A stretch of DNA of 64,000 bases from Malacoraja senta (Eukaryota), in NCBI GenBank assembly GCA_038087875.1, contig CM075989.1:21950001-22014000 (forward strand), read 5' to 3'. The position numbers and the translations under genes are program-made. Numbering within the stretch: position 1 is the first letter of the stretch; every line of letters begins with the position of its first letter. A model generated the notes under the pieces. That model did not search any database. It was given only the letters and a program-made list of their open reading frames with translations, and was not told where the DNA came from. Shown one piece after another: positions 3,310-59,058 of this stretch.

Positions 3310-3500
3310 GTACCAAGTACCTGCAGATGCTAGTGGACAGAGGTAAGGCCACTCTGGAGTAGTTCAACGGGTCAGGCAAGGATATGTGGCGTTTTGGGTC
3401 GGTACATCGGAAGAAGGGTCCCGACCTGAAACATCGCCTATCCATGTTCTCCAAGGATGCTGCCTGACCTGCTGAGTTACTCCAGCATTTTGTGTGTTTC
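3310..3500. mobile_element. Degenerate fold-back Penelope terminus (hammerhead-bearing)
   Basis: Inverted then direct copy of the PLE terminal repeat (GAAGAAGGGTCCCGACCTGAAACATC...GAGTTACTCCAGC). Confidence 0.7.
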
Positions 3501-3884
3501 CAAGATTGAATTACAGCCATCTTGGGTTCATCCCATGGTTGAGTTGAAAGTCATATGGTCATTAGATCATCAAATTGACCTGGTCCAACTTTGACATTAT
3601 GGGAATGTGGAACTGTTACCAGTGAGGTACATGAGGAAAGAGACATCCTAGATAAGTCTGGCACTAACAAAAGCAGCATCAGAGAAGTGCTGAGATGTGA
3701 TTACAATGTTCAAAAGTTAGACAGTGAAGCATTTTGAAGCTTTTCAGACATTCATTTGGCTCAGGATATCTCTGAAAATAATGTCAATGAGTTTTCAAAG
3801 TTGCAATTGACACAATACCCAAACCAAGTAAAAGAAAGTTCCATGTTGCTACTACCTTTTTGTGGAAAATCCACATTCCAGAAC

Positions 3885-4637: not shown

Positions 4638-5604
4638 TGCTGCGAGCCACATTCTATTTTATGCTTTTGGTGGTTGCCTGAGCAGAGGAGGACTTGGCTT
4701 TAGTTTATAAAATAGTATTTTGGAATAATTGTGAATAGAATTTTTTCTCTCTTCTGGAGCCATTATGTGCCGTCGGTTATTCTGTGTATCATGATTCACC
4801 ACACATCTGGAATTAAGGCAATTTGATCAGCGTTGCTGGTGAAGTGCCAATTTAGGTGATTGAGATGTGTGGAAACAAGTCACATTTAGCTACTTTTCTG
4901 CTCTTCGTGTTATTAAATTCATGTTTCACAAATTACATACAAGAAAAATGTCTGCCAGCTGTTTTGGATTGTCATCATTGCAATATTAAAATAATAACGC
5001 ATAAGAGGTAAAATGTCCTAAAGTCTTTAATAATTCTATTAAAACTAAACGGGAGCAAAGCAGTAGCAGAAAATGAAAGAAATACTGGTGGTTTCAAAAT
5101 TGAAAAGACAAACGGATGACAATCGGCTTGCAACTATGCAATCAGCCATCAATTATATAAAGTATAGATTGGTATAAACCAGCATCTCAAGTTCCTTGTT
5201 ACTACTAATAATTGTGTCAAGTTGGCTTGAAAATGGAAGACAAGAACACAGGTGTCAGGGGTTACGGGGAGAAGGCAGGAGAATTGAGTTAGGAGGGAGA
5301 GATAGATCAGCCATGATTGAATGGGCCGAATGGCCTAATTCTGCTCCTGGATCGTATGATCTTATGAAAATCCACGCAGTCACGGGGTGAATGTACGAAC
5401 TCCGTGCAGGAGGCACCCGTGACCAGGAGGTGGTTTTCACTGACGGACTTTTTACTTCTGCAAGGATCCGTGCTCTTTGTAAAATGTGTGTGGCTTGAAT
5501 GAAAATGCGAGTGGTCTGATTCATTAGTTCGTAGACAACATAGACATTGATAGAGTTCTGATTGGTGAAGAAGCTTGTCAAAGGATACAAAAGGATACCA
5601 CAAA

Positions 5605-8426: not shown

Positions 8427-8648
8427 TTTAAGAAAGAACAGCAGATGCTGGAAAAATCTAAGGTAGACAAAAATGCCGGAGAAACTCAGCGGGTGAGGCA
8501 GCATCTATGGAGCGAAGGAAATAGGCGACGTTTCAGGTCGAGACCCTTCTTCAGACTAAAGAAGGGTCTCAAACCGAAACGTCGACTATTCCTTCACTCC
8601 AGAGATGCTGCCTCACCCGCTGAGTTTCTCCAGCATTTTTGTCTGCCG
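8427..8648. mobile_element. Palindromic (fold-back) Penelope-terminus insertion with hammerhead motifs
   Basis: Inverted arms centred on CTTCAGACTAAAG. 16-bp TSD ACAGATAGC(G/A)CCCGTG at 8411-8426 and 8649-8664. Confidence 0.9.
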
Positions 8649-9310: not shown

Positions 9311-9663
9311 ACAACTAATCAAGGTGAACAACTAATCGCACTTCTCCAGCTTTCCCAATCCTCTCACTGTTTCTGTGCCAGTTTAGACCTGACAATACAC
9401 AACAGGCCCATTCACTTCTGTGGCTGCAAGGGAGAAGGGTGTGGTATATCGTAATTTAATTGCAATTTTATTGGATTAATTTTAATATACCTATAATTTT
9501 TTACAATGCTGTATGTCTTCTTTTTTTAATTTAAAGGATTTAAGAAGTTTTTATTTGATTGATTACTTTTTAATCATCCTTGCATGTGTGTTTGCTTATA
9601 TGAGAGACACCCACAGATCATTGATATCTTTGACAGCTGGTAAGCCTGAGACAAACAGTAACA

Positions 9664-10234
9664 CCGAAGATAGACACAAAATGCTGGAGTAACTTGGCAC
9701 AGTGCAACGGTCGATCCTTACAGCGCCAAAGACCCGGGTTCGATTCTGACCACGGGTGCTGTCTGTATGGAGTTTGTACGTTCTCCCCGTGACCTGCACG
9801 GGTTTTCTCCGAGATCTTTGGTTTCCTCCCACACTCCAAAGGTTTGTAGGTTAATTGGCTTGGTAAAAAAGTAAATTGTCCCTAGTGTGTGTGTGTTGGA
9901 TAGAGTTAATGTAAGGGGATCGCTGGTCGTCAAGGACTCGGGGGGCTGAATGGCCTGTTTCTGTGCTGTATCTCTAAACTAAACTGAACTAAACTCAGCT
10001 GGACAGGCAGCATCACTGGAGAGAAGGAATGGGTGATGTTTCGGGTCGAGACCCTTCTTCAGATTGAGCTGGAGAGCAGGAGGAATCACAGAGGGGGAGC
10101 AGCAAGAGAGGGTGTTGCAGAACTCTCGTCGGAGAGAGGAAGAGAACTTCTTCAAAGTAGGCATACCTTGAGGAGATTTTGCGTTGGAGCAGACGGAATG
10201 TGTAGGAAGGAACTTCAGATGCTGGTTCCTTCCT
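9664..10234 (-). mobile_element. Circularly permuted Penelope-derived insertion with hammerhead motif, interrupted by a SINE
   Basis: 15-bp TSD AGACAAACAGTAACA at 9649-9663 and 10235-10249. Minus-strand order is distal tail, putative ORF start, hammerhead, proximal tail. Confidence 0.8.
9696..9995 (+). mobile_element. HE1-like V-SINE inserted in a PLE terminus
   Basis: Head, V-domain and tail. Flanks GGAGTAACT and AACTCAGC rejoin the PLE repeat. Confidence 0.9.
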
Positions 10235-10380
10235 AGACAAACAGTAACAATTGGAGAGGCCCTGGACAGCAACTGGCCCTTGCTTAGCAAGAACTGGCTT
10301 CTCTCAACTCTTGATAGACACAAAATGCTGGAGTAACTCAGAGGGACAGAGAGGCATATGCTGCCTGTCCCGCTGAGTAA

Positions 10381-10604
10381 AGGGCCTGTCCCACTTGACG
10401 ATTTTTTCGGTGACTGCCGGCGTCATATCAGTGTCGCCAAAAGATTTTGAACATTTCAAAATCCAGCGGCAACAAAGAAAATGTTGTGGCACTTGAAAAA
10501 TCACCGCTCGTCATACGTCACCACGCCGCGTCATTCCGGTGACCTGATATGTCAGTCAATGATGCCGGCAGTTGCCGAAACAATCGCCAAGTGGGACAGG
10601 CCCT
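10381..10604. mobile_element. PIF/Harbinger-type MITE (second internal type)
   Basis: Same 16-bp TIR as 8698-8995, extended to an imperfect inverted repeat of about 46 bp. TAA TSD. Inserted in a PLE terminus (about 10313-10665). Confidence 0.9.
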
Positions 10605-10802
10605 TAACTTCAGCATTATGTGTCTATCTTCGATTTAAACCTGCATCTGCAGTTCCTTCCGACACATTCTCTCAACTCTTGTTCCAGATGCGAATGAGCT
10701 TTGTACGACAACTTGCTGGCACCAGTTTTGGATGTTTTACAGTCAGTACAAAGAGTCATAGTCATGGAGTCACATGGCCTACTCCCTCACCTATTGTCTA
10801 TT

Positions 10803-21935: not shown

Positions 21936-21978
21936 AGAAACATCCTATCACATCTAGAGAGCAGCAATACTTTGGTTA

Positions 21979-22138
21979 AAAGACGCAATTTGCTGGTGTA
22001 ACTCAGTGGGTCAGGCAGCATCTCTGGAAACGATAGGGAGAGGTGAAAAAATTCTTCAAGTTAGGCATACCTTGAGGAAATTTCGCAGTGGAGCTCTAAA
22101 ATGTAGACATAAGGAACTGTAGATGCTGGTTGAATAAA
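21979..22138 (-). mobile_element. Circularly permuted Penelope-derived insertion
   Basis: 13-bp TSD AATACTTTGGTTA at 21966-21978 and 22139-22151. Same permuted order as 9664-10234. Confidence 0.78.
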
Positions 22139-22159
22139 AATACTTTGGTTACTTTTCTT

Positions 22160-24502: not shown

Positions 24503-25119
24503 TGGACATGTTGGTCAGTTGGGCCAAAGGGCCTGTTTCCACACTGTATCACTCTATGACACTATGACTGTGCAACCCTTAAACTCAGCTCCATGTTCTG
24601 GACCTTCTGGTCAAAGGAAACAATCTCTCAGTATCCATCCTGTCAATTCCTTTCAACACATTACATGTTTTAATGACATCACGCTATATTCTTTTATACT
24701 CTATCCAGTGTGCACTTAAAACACTACAAACTCAAGATCCATCATAAAGCTGACTGCTCATCCCAGGAAACAAACCAATAGATGAACTCTCCACTTCCTC
24801 CAAGTCTTGAATATCCTTCATGAGTATTTAGACACAATTGTAAACAGTCGAGGTCTCAACAGAACCTGAAAAACTAGCAACACTTAATAAGCTAGACATC
24901 AGAACGAAAATCACAATGTCTCCGCGCTAGACTCCAGGAACTGTAGATGCTGGTATATCAAAAAAGACACAAAGTGCTTGGGTAACTCAACGGGCCAGGC
25001 AGCATATCTGGAGAACATGATAGGCAATGTTTGTAGTCAGGACCTTTCTCCCGAAATGTCCCACCAAAACGCTGCCTGTTCATGTTCTCCAGAGATGCTG
25101 CCTGAAGTTACTCCAGTAT

Positions 25120-25573: not shown

Positions 25574-25847
25574 GTACACAAAAATGCTGGAGAAACTCAG
25601 CAGCATCTATGGAGCGAAGGAAATAGGCAACGTTTCGGGCCGAAACCCTTCTTCAGACTGACAGGGGGTGGGGAGAAGAAAGGGAAAAAAGGAAAAAAGG
25701 CGGAGGAGGAGCCCGAGGGCTGGGGGAGGGGAGGAGACAACCAGAGGGCTGATGAAGGGGAGGGGACAGCAAGGGCTAGCAGAGTTGAGAGAATTCAATG
25801 TTCAAGCCCCCAGGATGTAGACTGCCCAAGCTTTAACACTTTAACAC
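25574..25847 (-). mobile_element. Penelope 3' fragment (GIY-YIG ORF end plus hammerhead)
   Basis: Near-identical to 37918-38183. 14-bp TSD TTAGTTTATTGTAA at 25560-25573 and 25848-25861. Confidence 0.92.
25626..25661 (-). ncRNA. Minimal type I hammerhead ribozyme motif
   Basis: UCAGU-CUGAAGA-A-GGGU(UUCG)GCCC-GAAACGUU-GCC. Activity not shown. Confidence 0.7.
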
Positions 25848-26761: not shown

Positions 26762-27261
26762 AGAAACATAGAAATTAGGTGCAGGAGTAGGCCATTCGGC
26801 CCTTCGAGCCTGCACCGCCATTCAATATGATCATGGCTGATCATCCAACTCAGTATCCTGTACGTGCCTTCTCTCCATACCCTCTGATCCCTTTAGCCAC
26901 AAGGGCCACATCTAACTCCCTCTTAAATATAGCCAATGAACTGGCCTCGACTACCCTCTGTGGCAGAGAGTTCCAGAGATTCACCACTCTCTGTGTGAAA
27001 AAAGTTCTTCTCATCTCGGTTTTAAAGGATTTCCCCTTTATCCTTAAGCTGTGACCCCTTGTCCTGGACTTCCCCAACATCGGGAGCAATCTTCCTGCAT
27101 CTAGCCTGTCCAACACCTTAAGAATTTTGTAAGTTTCTATAAGATCCCCTCTCAATCTCCTAAATTCTAGAGAGTATAAACCAAGTCTATCCAGTCTTTC
27201 TTCATAAGACAGTCCTGACATCCCAGGAATCAGTCTGGTGAACCTTCTCTGCACACCCTCT
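26762..27261 (-). mobile_element. Young CR1 LINE 3' fragment
   Basis: Uninterrupted EGVQRRFTRLIPGMSGLSYEERLDRLGLYSLEFRRLRGDLIETYK...GYGEKARTGY and (TTTCTATG)n tail. Confidence 0.95.
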
Positions 27262-27602
27262 AAGTTAAAATTGTAGCAGTACAATAACCGTATAATTGTA
27301 TATGCCGTTGGTTTTATTTTTGTACATTTGCTTCTAATAAATAAATAAATAAAAAATAAATAAAAAATAAATGTTGCTGTAGGAGTAGAGATTTGAGAGT
27401 GTGGAGCGATCGTAATGTGAGTTTGTAGATCTGCTTCTGTGGCCAACACGCAAATAGTCGCCTGGGTTGGTCGCCATCTTGGGAAGCAGAGCTTTCTTCG
27501 TGACCTCACTGACGATCATTTCCGGGTGAGTTTGCACCAGTTTCCATGGGCGATACACACTGGCACATCTGTCTCCTTCCCAATATCAGTCAAGTTTGTA
27601 AT

Positions 27603-27810
27603 GGTAGACAAAATGCTGGAGTAACTCAGCGGGTCGGGCAGCATTTCTGGAGAAAAAGAATAGGCGACGTTCAGTCTGAAGAAGGGTTCCAACCAAGTCG
27701 AAAAGTCACCCATTCCTTCTCTCCAGAGATGCTGCCTGACATGGTGGGTCACTCTGGCTTTTTGTGTCTATCTTTGCTGTAAACCAGCATCTGCAGTTTC
27801 TTCCTGTACA
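27603..27810. mobile_element. Fold-back Penelope-terminus element
   Basis: Inverted arm, then TCAGTCTGAAGAAGGG..., then direct arm. Confidence 0.85.
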
Positions 27811-27825
27811 TACAATACTCTCTCT

Positions 27826-36066: not shown

Positions 36067-36212
36067 GCTTTCGTCTGACGAAGTCTGAAGAAAAGTCTCG
36101 ACCCGGAACGTCACCTATTCCTTTTCCCCAGAGATGCTGCCTGACCCGCTGAGTTAATCCAGCTTTTTGTGTCTATCTTTGGTTTAAACCAGCATCTGCA
36201 GTTCCTTCCTAC
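36067..36212 (+). mobile_element. Short hammerhead/PLE-terminus insertion
   Basis: GTCTGAAGAAAAGTCTCGACCCGGAACGTCACC...CAGCATCTGCAGTTCCTTCCTAC, flanked by ATGTGAAG. Confidence 0.85.
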
Positions 36213-36474
36213 ATGTGAAGTTTTTTGGTGTCTCTTATCGCTGAATTAGAAGACTTTGAGTTCAGGCACCTGACATGAGCACATCATCTAGACGGGATAT
36301 TTGTAAGCAGGAGGTGTCCCAGACTGTCAGAGTCGTTGCCTCTTGGACGAGGTTCCTAAACTGTTGACCTCTTTGTTCTCTCAAAAATATACCAAAGCAC
36401 CATTTGAAGGAAAGCCGCAATCTTTCACTTTTACTGCGTTCCTCTCTGACTCATCCCTTCTCCATATCTCTTTT

Positions 36475-37220: not shown

Positions 37221-37439
37221 GAAACTAATAAATGTTAGCTCTGTTTCTCTCTCTGCAGATGCTGCTTGTCTTGCTCATTATTTTCAGCACTTTCCGATAT
37301 CAGTTTTATTCCGTTTGTATCTGGATCTCAGACAAAACATGGGAAACATGTTCCTTATTTATTAATGATAAGGCATCAGCTTTAGAAGAAGTTAAAAGGA
37401 TCACTACAGATTAGAGAAGCCAAAAGGATCATGATATAT

Positions 37440-38221
37440 ATACCCCACCACTCGCCACATCTTCCCATCTCCCCCCATGTCTGCCTTCCGCAAAGACCGC
37501 TCCCTCCGTAACTCCCTTGTCAATTCTTCCCTTCCCTCCCGTACCACCCCCTCCCCGGGTACTTTCCCTTGCAACCGCAAGAGATGCAACACTTGTCCCT
37601 TCACCTCCCCCTCGACTCCATTCAAGGACCTAAGCAGTCGTTCCAGGTGCGACAGAGGTTCACCTGCATTTCCTCCAACCTCATCTATTGCATCCGCTGC
37701 TCTAGATGCCAGCTGATCTACATCGGTGAGACCAAGCGGAGGCTTGGCGATCGTTTCGCCGAACACCTCCGGTCGGTCCGCAATAACCGACCTGACCTCC
37801 CGGTGACTCAGCACTTCAACTCCCCCTCCCATTCCGTATCTGACCTCTATGTCCTGGGTCTCCTCCATGGCCACAGCGAGCAACACCGGAAATTGGAGGA
37901 AATGCACCTCATATTCCGCTTGGGCAGTCTACATCCTGGGGGCTTGAACATTGAATTCTCCCAATTCTGCTAGCCCTTGCTGTCCCCTCCCCTTCATCAG
38001 CCCTCTGGTTGTCTCCTCCCCTCCCCTAGCCCTCGGGCTCCTCCTCCGCCTTTTTTCCTTTTTTCCTTTCTTCTCCCCACCCCCTATCAGTCTGAAGAAG
38101 GGTTTCGGCCCGAAAAGTTGCCTATTTCCTTCGCTCCATAGATGCTGCTGCACCCGCTGAGTTTCTCCAGCATTTTTGTGTACCTTCGATTTTTCCAGCA
38201 TCTGCAGTTCCTTCTTTAACA
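37440..38221 (+). mobile_element. Penelope-like element 3' part: GIY-YIG endonuclease region plus terminal repeat with hammerhead
   Basis: AFRKDRSLRNSLV...CNRKRCNTCP (frameshift) ...FTCISSNLIYCIRCSRCQLIYIGETKRRLGDRFAEH...E..LIFRLGSLHPGGLN. 10-bp TSD CATGATATAT (37430-37439, 38222-38231). Confidence 0.95.
38088..38122 (+). ncRNA. Hammerhead motif of the Penelope terminus (stem III variant GAAAAGUU)
   Basis: CUGAAGA at 38092, stem II GGGU(UUCG)GCCC, GAAA. A C>A change breaks the AACGUU palindrome. Confidence 0.6.
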
Positions 38222-38676
38222 CATGATATATTAATTAATTGTTAACTAAATAATCCTATATTTTCAACTTTGTTGCGTACTTAAATTGAACTTTCAGTTA
38301 TACTGGTAAATATATCATAATATTTATTTGATATAATAAGGAATGTGTTTTTGATTCTTCTGTTGCCTTTACTGTGACACTGCATTGGTTTCAGCTATGT
38401 GTTCTAACAATCAGCAAACATCACTTTGCCTGTACATGTGAGTCACATCAAGGCTACAGCGGTAAGCTTTGTTTACATTGTGCCTTGGTGCCTTAATTTA
38501 GACTCATTGCCATACACTGATCTGAAGGATTCATAGCAGATCATCTTTTTCATCTGCCGCATCTTCACAGTGTGAAATTTTTTTTTTTACAAATGTTGGG
38601 CAAATCCATGCATGCTGGACGCTGACTAAACTCATCAAATGATGTACATGTGTAGATAGGACATAGAACAGATAAG

Positions 38677-42985: not shown

Positions 42986-43196
42986 GCAGTGAGCTGTATG
43001 TACAGCAAGTGCCCTAATAGCAAGGAACAGTCATTTCTACCCAGTGAAGTAGAATCTCTAATTGAATGCAATTAATACTTAGAATGAACAGACACGGAGT
43101 GAGAAAGAAAATGCAGGCAAACAGGTTAAATGTGTAGGGAAGAACTGCAGATGCTGGTTTATGCTAGCCTCCTCATTGCCCAATCTAAAGATGCTC

Positions 43197-44707: not shown

Positions 44708-44900
44708 GGACACAAGGAACTGCAGATGCTGTTTTACAAACAAGGCACAAGGTGCTGGAGTAACTCAGCCGGTCAGGCAGCACCTCTGGAGAAACCTCCG
44801 GAGTCTGATAAAGGGTCCTGACCCGAAATATCACCCAACCACGTCCTACAGAGATGTTGTCTGACCCATTGAGTTTCTCTGACACTTAGTGTCGTTTTTT
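44708..44900. mobile_element. Degenerate fold-back Penelope-terminus element
   Basis: Inverted arm, then GTCTGATAAAGGGTCCTGACCCGAAA arm. Approximate TTGT(C/T)GATATTGT duplication. Confidence 0.75.
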
Positions 44901-45368
44901 GCTTGTTGATATTGTAGGAGTCATGAGCTCATTAATTCATGTCGTAGGAGCAGAATGAGGCCATTCTGCCCATCAAGTCTACTCTGCCATTCAATCATGA
45001 CTAATCTATCTTTCCCTCTCAACCCCATTCTCGTGCCTTCTCCTCGTAACCCCTGACAACCGTACTAATCAAGAATCTGCCAATCTCCGCCTCACAAATA
45101 TCCATTGAATTGGCCTCCAGAGCCTTCTGTGACAATGAATTCCACAGATTCATCACCCTCTGATTCCTTCAATCTATCTGTCTTACACTGCCTTTTACAG
45201 TAAACATGTACAAATATTTTCATTCTGAAGGGTGAAGACCATGGGATGGGCAACTATCTCAAATGTGCTGGATCATACTGTATTAGTTGTTACATCCCCA
45301 TCTGATAATCAGTTACATTGTCATCAATAAAATGCCTGGCAATCTGATCACGTGACGAGAACCTGCTA

Positions 45369-47029: not shown

Positions 47030-47602
47030 ACATTTATGTTACTGTGGTGAAGAAGGCTTATGGTATACTTGGCATCATAGTTAGGGGCTGTGAGTATAAT
47101 AGTCTGAAAATCACTTGATAGTGATTCAGAAAATCACTATAACTTGTGAACTTGTGAAAATCATGTGCAGCTTTGAGGGACTTTGGTTCAGCCACATTTG
47201 GTGTATTGCACGATCTTTACAGGAAGGATGTGGAGGCTTGCGAGAGAATACAGAAGAGTTTTTTTTGGTTTTTTTTTACAATAGGTGCAGGATTAGGCCA
47301 TTCGGCCCTTCGAGCCAGCAGATCTTTGCCAGATTAGGGAGCATTAGCTTCAGGAAAATGTTGGACAGACTTGTATTGTTTCCTCAGTAACGCTAGGGGT
47401 CGTGAGGACGGTTGGTAGACGTATATAAAATGATGATCGACATATATAGGGTAGACAGTCAGAACCTTTTTTCCTAGGGCGGAAATGTCAAAGACTAGAG
47501 GGCATAGCTTTAAGGTGTGAGGGACAAAGTTTAAAGGAGATGTGTGGGGCAGGTTATTTCACACAAAGACTGGTGGCTGCACCAGGGGTGGTGGTGGAGG
47601 CA
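47030..47602 (+). mobile_element. Older CR1 fragment (resumes 48377-48430)
   Basis: Degenerate VVKKAYGILG...KTRGHSFKV...GRLFHTK. Split by a younger CR1. Confidence 0.8.
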
Positions 47603-48376
47603 CGTATTATCTGAATGGTGGCCGATTAGGAAAAGGGGAGATGCAACGAGACCTGGGTGTCGTGGTACACCAGTCATTGAAAGTAGGCATGCAGGTGCAG
47701 CAGGCAGTGAAGAAGGCGAATGGTATGTTAGCATTCATAGCAAAAGGATTTGAGTATAGGAGCAGGGAGGTTCTACTGCAGTTGTACAGGGTCTTGGTGA
47801 GACCACACCTGGAGTATTGCGTACAGTTTTGGTCTCCAAATCTGAGGAAGGACATTATAGCCATAGAGGGAGTGCAGAGAAGGTTCACCAGACTGATTCC
47901 TGGGATGTCAGGACTTTCATATGAAGAAAGACTGGATAGACTCGATTTGTACTCGCTAGAATTTACAAGATTGAGGGGGGATCTTATAGAAACTTACAAA
48001 ATTCTTAAGGGGTTGGACAAGCTAGATGCAGGAAGATTGTTCCTGATGTTGGGGAAGTCCAGAACAAGGGGTCACAGTTTAAGGATAAGGGGGAAATCTT
48101 TTAGGACCGAGATGAGGAAAACATTTTTCACACAGAGAGTGGTGAATCTCTGGAATTCTCTGCCACAGAGGGTAGTTGAGGCCAGTTCATTGGCTATATT
48201 TAAGAGGGAGTTAGATGTGGCCCTTGTGGCTAAAGGGATCAGGGGGTATGGAGAGAAAGCAGGTACAGGATACTGAGTTGGATGATCAGCCATGATCATA
48301 TTGAATGGCGGTGCAGGCTCGAAGGGCCGAATGGCCTACTCCTGCACCTATTTTCTATGTTTCTATGTTTCTATGT
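47603..48376 (+). mobile_element. Young CR1 LINE, ORF2 C-terminal about 220 aa intact, 5' truncated
   Basis: YYLNG...QRDLGVVVHQSLKVGMQVQQAVKKANGML...LVRPHLEYCVQFWSP...WNSLPQRVVEA...GTGY*, (TTTCTATG)n tail. Confidence 0.97.
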
Positions 48377-50236: not shown

Positions 50237-50790
50237 AATATAGCAAGAAATAATGGTGGTACTCTAATGGATCATAGTCACATCCAATTAAACTGGAGAA
50301 ATTAAAGATTAACTTTCCACCCAGTGAATGCAGCAAATAATATTTGCTAATAAACAACATACCTCACTAACTACAAACATCCAACATTAACATTTGTGAC
50401 TTGGGTTTAATTAAATGAAGGTAGTATTGATTCCCCCCCCCCCCCCCCAAAGTAATAGGTTTCACATAAGACGATTAATATTATTCACACCCACATGTCT
50501 GCTGAATGATCTTGACCCTTGTAACCTTGGCCTTTTCAGAGGCTTACACTGCGCCTGCTTGCAGCCTGTCCCCGGCATGTTATTGACATAAACAGAATTT
50601 AATCTGTCTCTAGCAAGCACGAGCCAACCAGCACATTGGGCGATGACTGTGCACCACACAACAAGCTGCACAGCAGTGCCTAGTGGTGGTGGCACTATTT
50701 CTGCAGTCAGAATTAAAACAATAAAGTATCCACACGAATCCCTCCGTGTCCCAACTCGTAACTGAATTGGACTTAAATTAAATAAAAGGA

Positions 50791-51246
50791 CACAGAATGC
50801 TGGAGTAACTCAGCGGGTCAAGAGGCATCTCTGGAGAACATGGATAGGTGACGTTTCACACAGTGCTGGAGTAACTCAGCGGGTCAGGCAGCATCTCTGG
50901 AGAACATGGATAAATAACGTTTCACAGAGTGCTGGAGTAACTCAGCGGGTCAGGCAGCATCTCTGGAGAACATGGATAGGTGACGTTTCACAGAGTGCTG
51001 GAGTAACTCAGCGGGTCAGGCAGCATCTGTGGAGCGAAGGAAATGGGCAACCTTTCGGGCCGAAACCCTGAAGGAAATAGGCAACGTTTCGGGCCGAAAC
51101 CCGGAAGGGTTTCGGGCCGAAACGTTGCCTATTTCCTTCGCTCCATAGATGCTGCCGGAACATGGATAGGTGACGTTTCACAGAGTGCTGGAGTAACTCA
51201 GCGGGTCAGGCAGCATCTCTCGAGAATATGCATCGGTGACGTTTCG
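50791..51246 (-). repeat. 66-nt tandem array derived from the Penelope terminus, with an internal young fold-back insertion
   Basis: Units start at 50791, 50857, 50923, 50989 and 51179 (CACAGAGTGCTGGAGTAACTCAGCGGGTCAGGCAGCATCTCTGGAGAACATGGATAGGTGACGTTT). Confidence 0.92.
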
Positions 51247-52140: not shown

Positions 52141-52288
52141 AAGATAGACACATAAATGCTGGAGCAACTCAGTGGGTCAGGCAGCATCTAAGGGAGACAC
52201 AAAATGCTGGAGGAACTCAGCGGGACAGGCAGCATCTCTGGAGAGAAGGAATGGGTGACATTTCGGGTCGAGACCCTTCTTCGGACTG
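52141..52288 (-). mobile_element. Partially duplicated hammerhead/PLE terminus
   Basis: Two tandem GACACA(T/A)AAATGCTGGAG...GGCAGCATCT segments followed by the hammerhead reverse complement. Confidence 0.85.
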
Positions 52289-52477
52289 ATCAGGCGATCA
52301 GGCAGCAAGACTGGTGAAAAGGAAAAGCTGGGTTGGAACCCGTCTTCGGACCGAGAGTCGTTTACCAATCCACCCACCGGAAGGATTCACATATTGTGGC
52401 AGTAAGGATCCAATCGGCTGAACTATGGTTGATTAAAACACCCCTTAAATGCTGACTGGTTTCTACTAATCTAAACA

Positions 52478-55556: not shown

Positions 55557-55875
55557 TATAGAAACATAGAAACATAGAAAATAGGTGCAGGAGTAGGCCA
55601 TTTGGCCCTTCGAGCCTGCACCGCCATTCAATATGATCATGGCTGATCATCCAACTCAGTATCCCGTGCCTGCCTTCTCTCCATACCCCCTGATCCCTTT
55701 AGCCACAAGGGCCACATCTAACTCCATCTTAAATATAGCCAATGAACTGGCCTCAACTACCTTCTGTGGCAGAGAATTCCAGAGATTCACCACTCTCTGT
55801 GTGAAAAATGTTTTTCTCATCTCGGTGCTAAAAGACTTCCCCCTTATCCTTAAACTGTGACCCCTTGTTCTGGAA
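55557..55875 (-). mobile_element. Young CR1 3' fragment
   Basis: SRTRGHSLRIRGKSF...GYGEKAGTGY, near-identical to 48060-48376. Confidence 0.95.
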
Positions 55876-56159
55876 CATGGAACAATATATAGAAGATAGA
55901 AGATAAACAAAGTTGTAGAGTAACTCAGTGGCTCAGGCAACATCTCAGGAGAAAAAAGATGGTCACGTATCGGGTCATAAGGAATAGGAGCAGAATTAGG
56001 CCATTCGGCCCATCAAGTCTACTCCGCCATTCAATCATGGCTTAATTTTGCCCCGATATCCTATGAACATGATAATTTGCTGTCAGTAAACTTCATAACA
56101 TCTATTTGACCTCATGAAGAGTGTTTTTGGACCCACCTTCAAAGGGATTCTAGAAACCA

Positions 56160-58692: not shown

Positions 58693-59058
58693 GTCTGAAG
58701 ATGGGTCTCGACCCAAAACATCACCCATTCCTATTATTTGTAGGAAGGAACTACGGATGCTGGTTTAAACCGAAGATGGACACAAAATGCTCAGCATGAC
58801 AGACAACAAATCTCTGGAGAGAAAGAATGGGTGATGTTATGGGTTGAGACCCTTCTTCAGACTAGAGTCAGGGGAAAGGGATACGAGAGATATAGGCGGT
58901 GATGTAGAGAGATATAGAACAATGAATGAAAGATATGCAAAAAAGTAATGATGATAAAGGAAACAGGCCATAGTTAGCTGTCTGCTAGGTTCTATCCATT
59001 CCAATTCCTTCTCTCCAGAGATGCTGCCTGACCTGCTGAGTTACTCCAGCATTTTGTG
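58693..59058. mobile_element. Nested PLE termini (plus-strand short copy containing a minus-strand longer copy)
   Basis: Outer TSD TCTACCCTTT (58683-58692, 59059-59068). Inner copy at about 58740-58990 is in opposite orientation. Confidence 0.75.

Follow-up and report, generated by a model that had tools for sequence, protein, structure and literature searches.

The insert at 9664-10234 of the window, i.e. the whole 64-kb stretch of DNA that was analysed, is a real, recurrent permuted form derived from a Penelope element (PLE). Our preferred but still tentative reading is that it is a one-off TPRT product, for which reverse transcription would have started at the start of the element's tail and run to the usual stop at the 5′ side, then jumped ahead within the same RNA molecule before halting where it had begun. 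The copy is old and most likely inert.

Boundaries and order of the insert

The 15-mer AGACAAACAGTAACA has two exact occurrences in the 64 kb, at 9649-9663 and 10235-10249, and an exact pair like this near the ends is expected by chance at about 1e-5. The pair is the 15-bp TSD that an earlier, sequence-only reading had placed around the unit. Without a SINE that was inserted later the insert has 270 nt, and 263 nt if a 7-nt piece is left out as well, compared with about 265 nt in the earlier estimate. On the minus strand it runs from the 7-nt piece through the tail, a 34-nt spacer, an ATG-led segment and a hammerhead to the rest of the pseudo-LTR (pLTR) body. The order described before, with the ATG-led segment from 10164 followed by the hammerhead, was confirmed, and the translation is as given. 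The features are:

9649..9663, no strand: TSD, left copy, 15 bp, exact match to 10235-10249
9664..9694, minus strand: 3′ part of the pLTR body, closing ...GTCTATCTTCGG at 9664; ends at the tail-start site (first RT start site)
9695..9995, plus strand: later SINE with a (TAAAC)n tail, splitting the pLTR body
9996..10065, minus strand: 5′ part of the pLTR body, beginning at the commonest 5′ end of short copies
10030..10065, minus strand: minimal type I hammerhead; core 10062-10056, bulged A, stem II 10054-10043, GAAA 10042-10039, cleavage after 10035
10066..10164, minus strand: ATG-led segment of 33 codons; in the element it follows the tail and is high-copy; shared with the second permuted copy
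10165..10198, minus strand: 34-nt spacer between tail and ATG, presumed 5′ UTR
10227-10199, minus strand: PLE tail AACCAGC...CCTACACA at the 5′ end of the insert, equal to positions 106-132 of copy 36082
10228..10234, plus strand: 7-nt inverted copy of the tail end (arm 10225-10239 with overlaps); read on the minus strand (10234-10228) it is AGGAAGG, first in the insert
10235..10249, no strand: TSD, right copy, 15 bp, exact match to 9649-9663

Projected onto the ordinary copy 36082-36213, the pieces correspond to positions 3-70, 71-101 (the piece 9664..9694, where 3 nt of the TSD match the element too) and 106-132. The insert thus starts at position 106 and ends at position 101 of the ordinary copy, which bears out the claim of a circular permutation that starts where it ends. 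In contigs of other copies, 10227 and 9661 are joined across a single letter, so that the gap between the end and the start of the insert is 1 nt with the 3-nt TSD overlap and 4 nt without it. The SINE is skipped by joints of other copies (9691->9994, 9692->9996). ARAGORN found no tRNA gene in it; we take it to be HE1/V-SINE-like.

The repeat family in the window

The 64-kb window contains 31 clusters of the repeat. One copy of a related subfamily has the ordinary order:

37430..38231, plus strand: 5′-truncated PLE with GIY-YIG ORF end, 3′ UTR, hammerhead, body and tail; 10-bp TSD

Here the repeat (38089-38230) follows the end of an ORF with a Pfam GIY-YIG match of 22.8 bits (cut-off 22.6), and the 3′ UTR between this ORF end and the hammerhead is pyrimidine-rich. 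The relatives of the ORF comprise 17 matches, with skate, ray and shark first and others too, the best at 66%. Because a related copy continues a GIY-YIG ORF with elasmobranch relatives, the repeat is the pLTR of an elasmobranch PLE, and the Penelope origin proposed from the sequence holds. The TSDs of other copies are 10-16 bp long.

For comparison of the ends, 35 arms were aligned to copy 36082-36213, leaving out the insert, the second permuted copy (see below) and the array at 50778-51246. The 3′ ends of 13 arms lie at positions 91-103 and those of 18 at 122-132; four end earlier and none at 104-121. At least two of the 18 late ends resemble over-extension into the flank, and the reference stops at 132. 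For the anole PLE, internal starts of the RT at either end of the tail, i.e. two start sites, are reported (PMC11167929). By analogy, the two groups of 3′ ends match two RT start sites that bound an optional tail of 30-40 nt. The 3′ end of the insert falls in one of the two common groups and is therefore an ordinary tail-less end.

At the 5′ side, 20 of the 35 arms reach positions 1-3, making the 5′ edge of the hammerhead the commonest 5′ end. Of these full arms, four run on into a pyrimidine-rich UTR (two of them judged by composition alone and within the range of shuffles), six are arms of head-to-head pairs, and the flanks of the remaining ten are no likelier to be alike than shuffles (one ambiguous).

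Several other arrangements of the repeat were observed. The tail start also serves as a 5′ end, since solo tails at 43129-43161 and 5169-5202 begin there; no TSD was found for them. Head-to-head inverted pairs (8427-8648, 44708-44902, 27603-27817, 24936-25105 and 3310-3534) meet at a near-palindrome at the 5′ edge of the hammerhead, the first two having TSDs of 16 and 13 bp, respectively. The rarer tail-to-tail inversion is found at 58693-58889, where an inverted hammerhead fragment directly adjoins a copy that runs to the tail end. A head-to-tail array at 50791-51034 consists of 3.7 copies of a 66-nt partial pLTR unit (92% identity) without the hammerhead core; a 34-nt dimer of a different subfamily and an inverted arm come next. 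The array could have arisen by repeated RT jumps or by minisatellite growth. Two tail-less bodies form a partial tandem at 52141-52290. Beside the insert, pLTR fragments (10313-10380 and 10604-10678) lie around an element with inverted ends at ~10380-10600.

A second permuted copy

A second copy in the window is permuted as well:

21979..22138, minus strand: second permuted copy, 160 nt; 13-bp TSD at 21966-21978 and 22139-22151

It contains the tail, the UTR, about 33 nt after the ATG, and then pLTR body from just past the cleavage-site region. Running from the tail start to the T-run that immediately precedes the tail, it has the same register as the insert, and its presence in the window argues against the insert being an accident. 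The bases around the ATG are identical in the two copies (15/15). The UTR-ATG segment is present in only these two copies of the window, both of which are permuted at the tail start. Their internal junctions differ, and that of the second copy lies in imperfect homology (~15 nt) between the ORF start and the body. The insert had been chosen beforehand, so that only the second copy is an independent test of a stop at the tail start. Two of the 35 other arms (the solo tails at 5169 and 43129) start at this site, which gives a chance of ~0.06-0.13; the support from the second copy for an exact stop is real but modest.

The same order would result if a unit-length PLE (tail-ORF-3′ UTR-body, with the tail at the 5′ end only) had been inserted and had later lost its interior by DNA deletion. 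Solo units with a 5′ tail are described (PMC8557442, PMC2377424), microhomology deletions are reported to disable many rotifer PLE copies (PMC3846280), and next to the homology of the second copy there is possible homology of 2-3 nt at the junction of the insert. However, the downstream breakpoint is the commonest cDNA end, which a deletion has no reason to hit, and both copies would have to have lost almost all of the ORF, each time with breakpoints no more than ~130 nt from the tail. We thus regard a later deletion as very unlikely.

The 5′ junction of the insert

The tail end is repeated in inverted form over 15 nt (10199-10213 versus 10225-10239), and the 7-nt piece lies within this repeat, in which 14 of 15 positions are complementary (93%) and 5 of the 15 nt lie inside the TSD. 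The piece could stem from priming of the second strand at the tail-end site or from fold-back of the cDNA, both of which would leave the same sequence. In L1 twin priming, a short segment at the 5′ junction is inverted, with microhomology to the end of the second strand. The inverted piece of the insert, in contrast, starts at the second PLE start site and has only 7-10 nt. An inverted 5′ piece is described as common in PLEs (PMC8557442), and the 7-nt inversion is a miniature of it. The anole PLE protein is reported to cut and extend both strands (PMC11167929).

Proposed formation by a forward template jump

Under the preferred reading, the template would be an RNA across the pLTR-ORF junction, in the order body (X), tail (Y), and UTR plus ORF start (I). 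The anole RT is reported to need RNA up to +172 and to start at or before +111-118, i.e. ~55 nt past the second start site are required (PMC11167929). Because of this need for RNA past the second start site, the template probably held X, Y and the ORF start one after another. A stretch of ~270 nt of such an RNA would cover every part of the insert.

Insertion would begin with cuts in both strands, presumably by the GIY-YIG enzyme, at the spacing of 15 bp that the TSD records. One strand would then prime internally at the tail start, where the insert ends, a site that the anole element suggests to be an RT start. The RT would copy X up to the 5′ edge of the hammerhead, the usual stop of short copies, and could from there jump ahead, still on the bound RNA, to a point ~130 nt beyond the tail, and then copy I and Y. 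It would halt at the observed position, 1-4 nt from its own start, probably because of the RNA-cDNA hybrid or a bound protein. The inversion at the other end would be produced if the other strand primed at the tail end for 7-10 nt, or if the cDNA folded back, and the ends would be joined at AAC/GTT. The SINE insertion and the decay of the ribozyme would have come afterwards.

The jump is favoured by the bimodal 3′ ends together with the X side of the insert at position 1, the commonest 5′ end, and also by the two UTR-ATG copies, in which the permutation lies at the tail start each time and the internal junction differs. Forward joins at the hammerhead edge are common, as the joint 10063->10199 (tail end to hammerhead edge) is carried by 34, 28, 35 and 18 contigs in the four runs described below. 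R2 is reported to make template jumps in vivo (PMC3414825), and such jumps have been proposed for PLEs (PMC3846280); a demonstration of a jump by a PLE RT was not found in the PLE literature searched.

Several points weaken the jump reading. A jump on linear RNA and one pass around a circle give the same DNA. The listed contigs that cross the junction region could mean a shared master, not independent events, and the junction of the second copy lies in imperfect homology, as would that of a microhomology deletion. The exact stop is supported by one independent copy, with the chance given above. Both ends of the insert match over 3-5 nt, unlike the starts of the anole RT, which are reported to occur without homology to the cut DNA (PMC11167929).

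The hammerhead and circular templates

The hammerhead of the insert reads CUGAAGA-A-GGGUCUCGACCC-GAAA-CAUC (10062-10035). The C-G pair of stem III is lost, i.e. the insert has CAUC where most of the depth of other copies has CGUC (place 10037). Core and stem III are intact in 1 of 16 matched copies of the window. Rfam gave no matches at the gathering threshold on the 64-kb window and four chance-level matches at E<=10, leaving the hammerhead unrecognised, and its identification is therefore a reading of motifs. The region folds about as well as shuffles (z 0.12). The core, the bulged base, the G-C stem II and the family-wide palindromic stem III fit the descriptor features published for minimal PLE ribozymes (PMC4209133), so that the minimal hammerhead claimed for the unit is retained on this basis.

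The internal junction of the insert lies at the 5′ edge of the hammerhead, 31 nt upstream of the cleavage site. A direct origin of this junction by hammerhead cutting and ligation was rejected because of that distance. A less direct route would be a covalently closed circular RNA template, on which the RT would start at the tail start, go round once and stop at its own primer; we consider it improbable. It would account for the register of 1-4 nt in both copies without an extra step, and circular PLE RNA has already been proposed (PMC4209133, PMC6765202). The X side of the second copy starts in the zone just past the cleavage site, and the sizes of 263 and 160 nt are within or near the range of retrozymes. 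The circle could have been a hammerhead-cut and ligated retrozyme-like monomer from a tandem array, or a ligated fragment. The junction upstream of the cleavage site would require a prior tandem master, and none was seen at the locus or among the copies of the window. The two permuted copies also have different junctions, and the circular fold of the insert, an old and decayed copy, is unremarkable (z -1.35 versus 60 shuffles, 53% paired). In anole, moreover, cleavage is reported to be dispensable for insertion, with no reads ending at the cleavage site (PMC11167929). Of the three routes offered by the sequence-only reading, i.e. a circular RNA or a tandem multimer primed internally, or a jump of the RT from the RNA 5′ end to a 3′ end, the jump fits best, and the circle is without direct support given the 31-nt offset and the differing junctions.

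Back-splicing of the insert was rejected, as its junction has no donor-like end. In long copies, a pyrimidine tract plus CAG stands directly before the hammerhead core, at 38040-38095 (plus strand) and 25659-25700 (minus strand). It resembles a splice acceptor, and the same bases, with TCAGTC at the 5′ edge of the hammerhead, are Initiator-like; AAG|GTATG at 10166, before the ATG, is donor-like. TCAGTC could mark a putative transcription start, and a back-spliced circle of ~165 nt is conceivable as an idea only. A D. virilis intron is described to end at a comparable site before the hammerhead core (PMC4209133).

The ATG-led segment

The ATG-led segment follows the tail in two copies of the window and is high-copy in the contigs. 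Its position after the tail, its conservation and background on the family favour it as the putative start of the PLE ORF, which is what it probably is. A comparison with longer proteins gave no candidates, and the two matches among protein cluster representatives were both unrelated. N-terminal PLE fragments from sharks begin further downstream and do not overlap with it, and all matches in the atlas were at 0.80 or lower. A pattern scan of metagenomes returned four loci, each with only 19-36 nt matched, which we take as chance. The end of the segment (10069-10081) matches a pLTR stretch (10016-10028) at 12 of 13 bases; the junction is not placed there.

Contigs of four organisms

Contigs from four DNA-type runs, representing four organisms, were aligned to 9450-10312. 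The left junction (9450 to 9686-9687) is present in all four organisms, with 0, 13, 7 and 11 other letters, respectively, showing that the insertion predates their split; the organism without any differing letter may be the species from which the window comes. On the right, a flank contig of one run apparently extends to ~10197. No empty-site joint is among the 15 joints listed, beyond which there are 2675 others. The summed depth of the ATG-led segment is 5e4 to 1e6, compared with 20-50 in the flank, although this depth is not a copy number.

The 32 pieces listed, beyond which there are 599,980 others, comprise 4 from the left flank, 2 from the SINE, 22 that end at 10065-10084, and 4 that run across the junction region. 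Of these last four, three have 20 nt on the hammerhead side and are alike in three runs; they probably represent one locus that starts mid-tail. The fourth spans the junction by 63 and 117 nt and without a net change in length, so that 1 of the 32 listed pieces crosses by at least 31 nt on both sides. The four crossing pieces probably come from two other, paralogous loci, and a contig with the insert's own junction is absent among the pieces listed in each run. The joints from tail end to hammerhead edge may be tandems or minimal permuted units. Loose ends at 10063 (1771-2648 per run) are mixed, with an agreement of 0.33-0.34; they agree with the commonest 5′ end and also include UTRs of different subfamilies.

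These contigs bear on the possibility that the insert belongs to a small non-autonomous family whose master was already deleted (X-Y-I-X-Y, SIDE-like). A linear transcript longer than the unit would then have been copied from the second to the first tail start. The crossing of the junction region by listed contigs of probably two paralogous loci is in line with such a master, and the insert's own junction contig is unlisted in every run, showing that crossing contigs can be missed. Non-autonomous, internally deleted PLEs are described (PMC8557442, PMC3846280), as is the register with a tail at the 5′ end of inserts (PMC8557442, PMC2377424). In contrast, crossing pieces would rank longest and yet make up only 4 of the 32 listed, versus the 22 that stop at 10065-10084. 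The second copy has another junction, and the halt at the tail start would still need a cause. A deleted master is thus an unlikely origin.

Comparison with known systems

The family was compared with anole PAc (PMC11167929) and D. virilis Penelope (PMC2377424) and with an overview of PLEs (PMC8557442). It shares with them the pLTR, the minimal hammerhead and the TSD, and its short copies also have a tail of 30-40 nt bounded by two RT start sites, the tail at either end, and the inverted 5′ piece. What sets the insert apart from short PLE copies is that sequence of the ORF start stands ahead of the hammerhead and that the unit closes at the point where it begins. PLE inserts with the tail at one end or the other had already been described (PMC8557442), and solo ORFs that begin with the tail repeat as well as internal deletions are in print (PMC8557442, PMC2377424, PMC3846280). 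In the 5′-tailed register the insert equals a unit that lacks its interior, which makes it less surprising. The sequence-only reading had overlooked both the internal starts of the PLE RT at either tail end (PMC11167929) and the tail at either end of inserts (PMC8557442). Short TSD-flanked PLE inserts closed on the RT start site were not found described in the openly accessible literature searched. The term "circularly permuted" is used in a rotifer PLE paper for possible assembly artefacts (PMC3846280).

Non-LTR retrozymes are described as tandem hammerhead repeats that are expressed as circles (PMC7229834). A 2026 preprint ties retrozymes to pLTRs, reports solo monomers with one chondrichthyan sampled, and admits minimal hammerhead motifs for retrozymes (bioRxiv 10.64898/2026.07.22.740005). 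The insert resembles them in being short, non-coding and related to a PLE pLTR, with one type I hammerhead per unit, and its 263 nt are within the monomer range of roughly 150-450 nt (PMC7229834). In contrast, its GC content of 50.7% is above the <45% given for retrozymes (PMC7229834), and its hammerhead is minimal with a lost stem III pair, compared with the canonical or active ribozyme of retrozymes. One unit lies between the TSDs and no repeat of the unit was found in the 64-kb window, and the junction is not shared with the copy at 21979-22138. Because tandem organisation, low GC and ribozyme integrity fail at this locus, we do not file the insert as a retrozyme; of the retrozyme-like monomer proposed earlier, the size and the content stand.

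R2 SIDEs and template jumps (PMC3414825) are alike in that short non-autonomous units have a ribozyme-bearing end joined elsewhere on the parent, by a jump or a deletion. As described there, R2 SIDEs make up active families and are collinear with their parent, whereas the insert is rotated about the pLTR-ORF junction, with internal initiation.

Open frames at 26850-27515 (minus strand), 47521-48276 (plus strand) and 55656-56012 (minus strand) are further features of the window; they presumably resemble the C-terminal part of a CR1/HER-type LINE. A run of N within 1783-2091 (200 N in the window) is an assembly gap.

Implications for PLE replication

A permuted insert preserves the start point of the RT, the point at which it came off the template and its stopping point; such inserts bear on how PLEs regenerate full-length, tandem and 5′-tailed copies. 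In the sole in vitro study, initiation is reported to be internal and to depend on RNA that lies downstream of the tail (PMC11167929), and circular RNA has been proposed for PLEs, with no demonstration found in the PLE literature searched. With two permuted inserts in 64 kb, an elasmobranch genome should suffice for a census from DNA alone that weighs jumps against circles and deleted masters. It is conceivable, though we hold it to be unlikely, that skate and ray genomes hold fossil PLE inserts in large numbers, each closed exactly on the RT start site and formed by an RT that copies circular RNA once round. If true, this once-round rule would explain the 5′-tailed full-length copies and the tail-to-hammerhead joins in tens of contigs, as well as the birth of retrozymes from circles of the pLTR and the ORF start.
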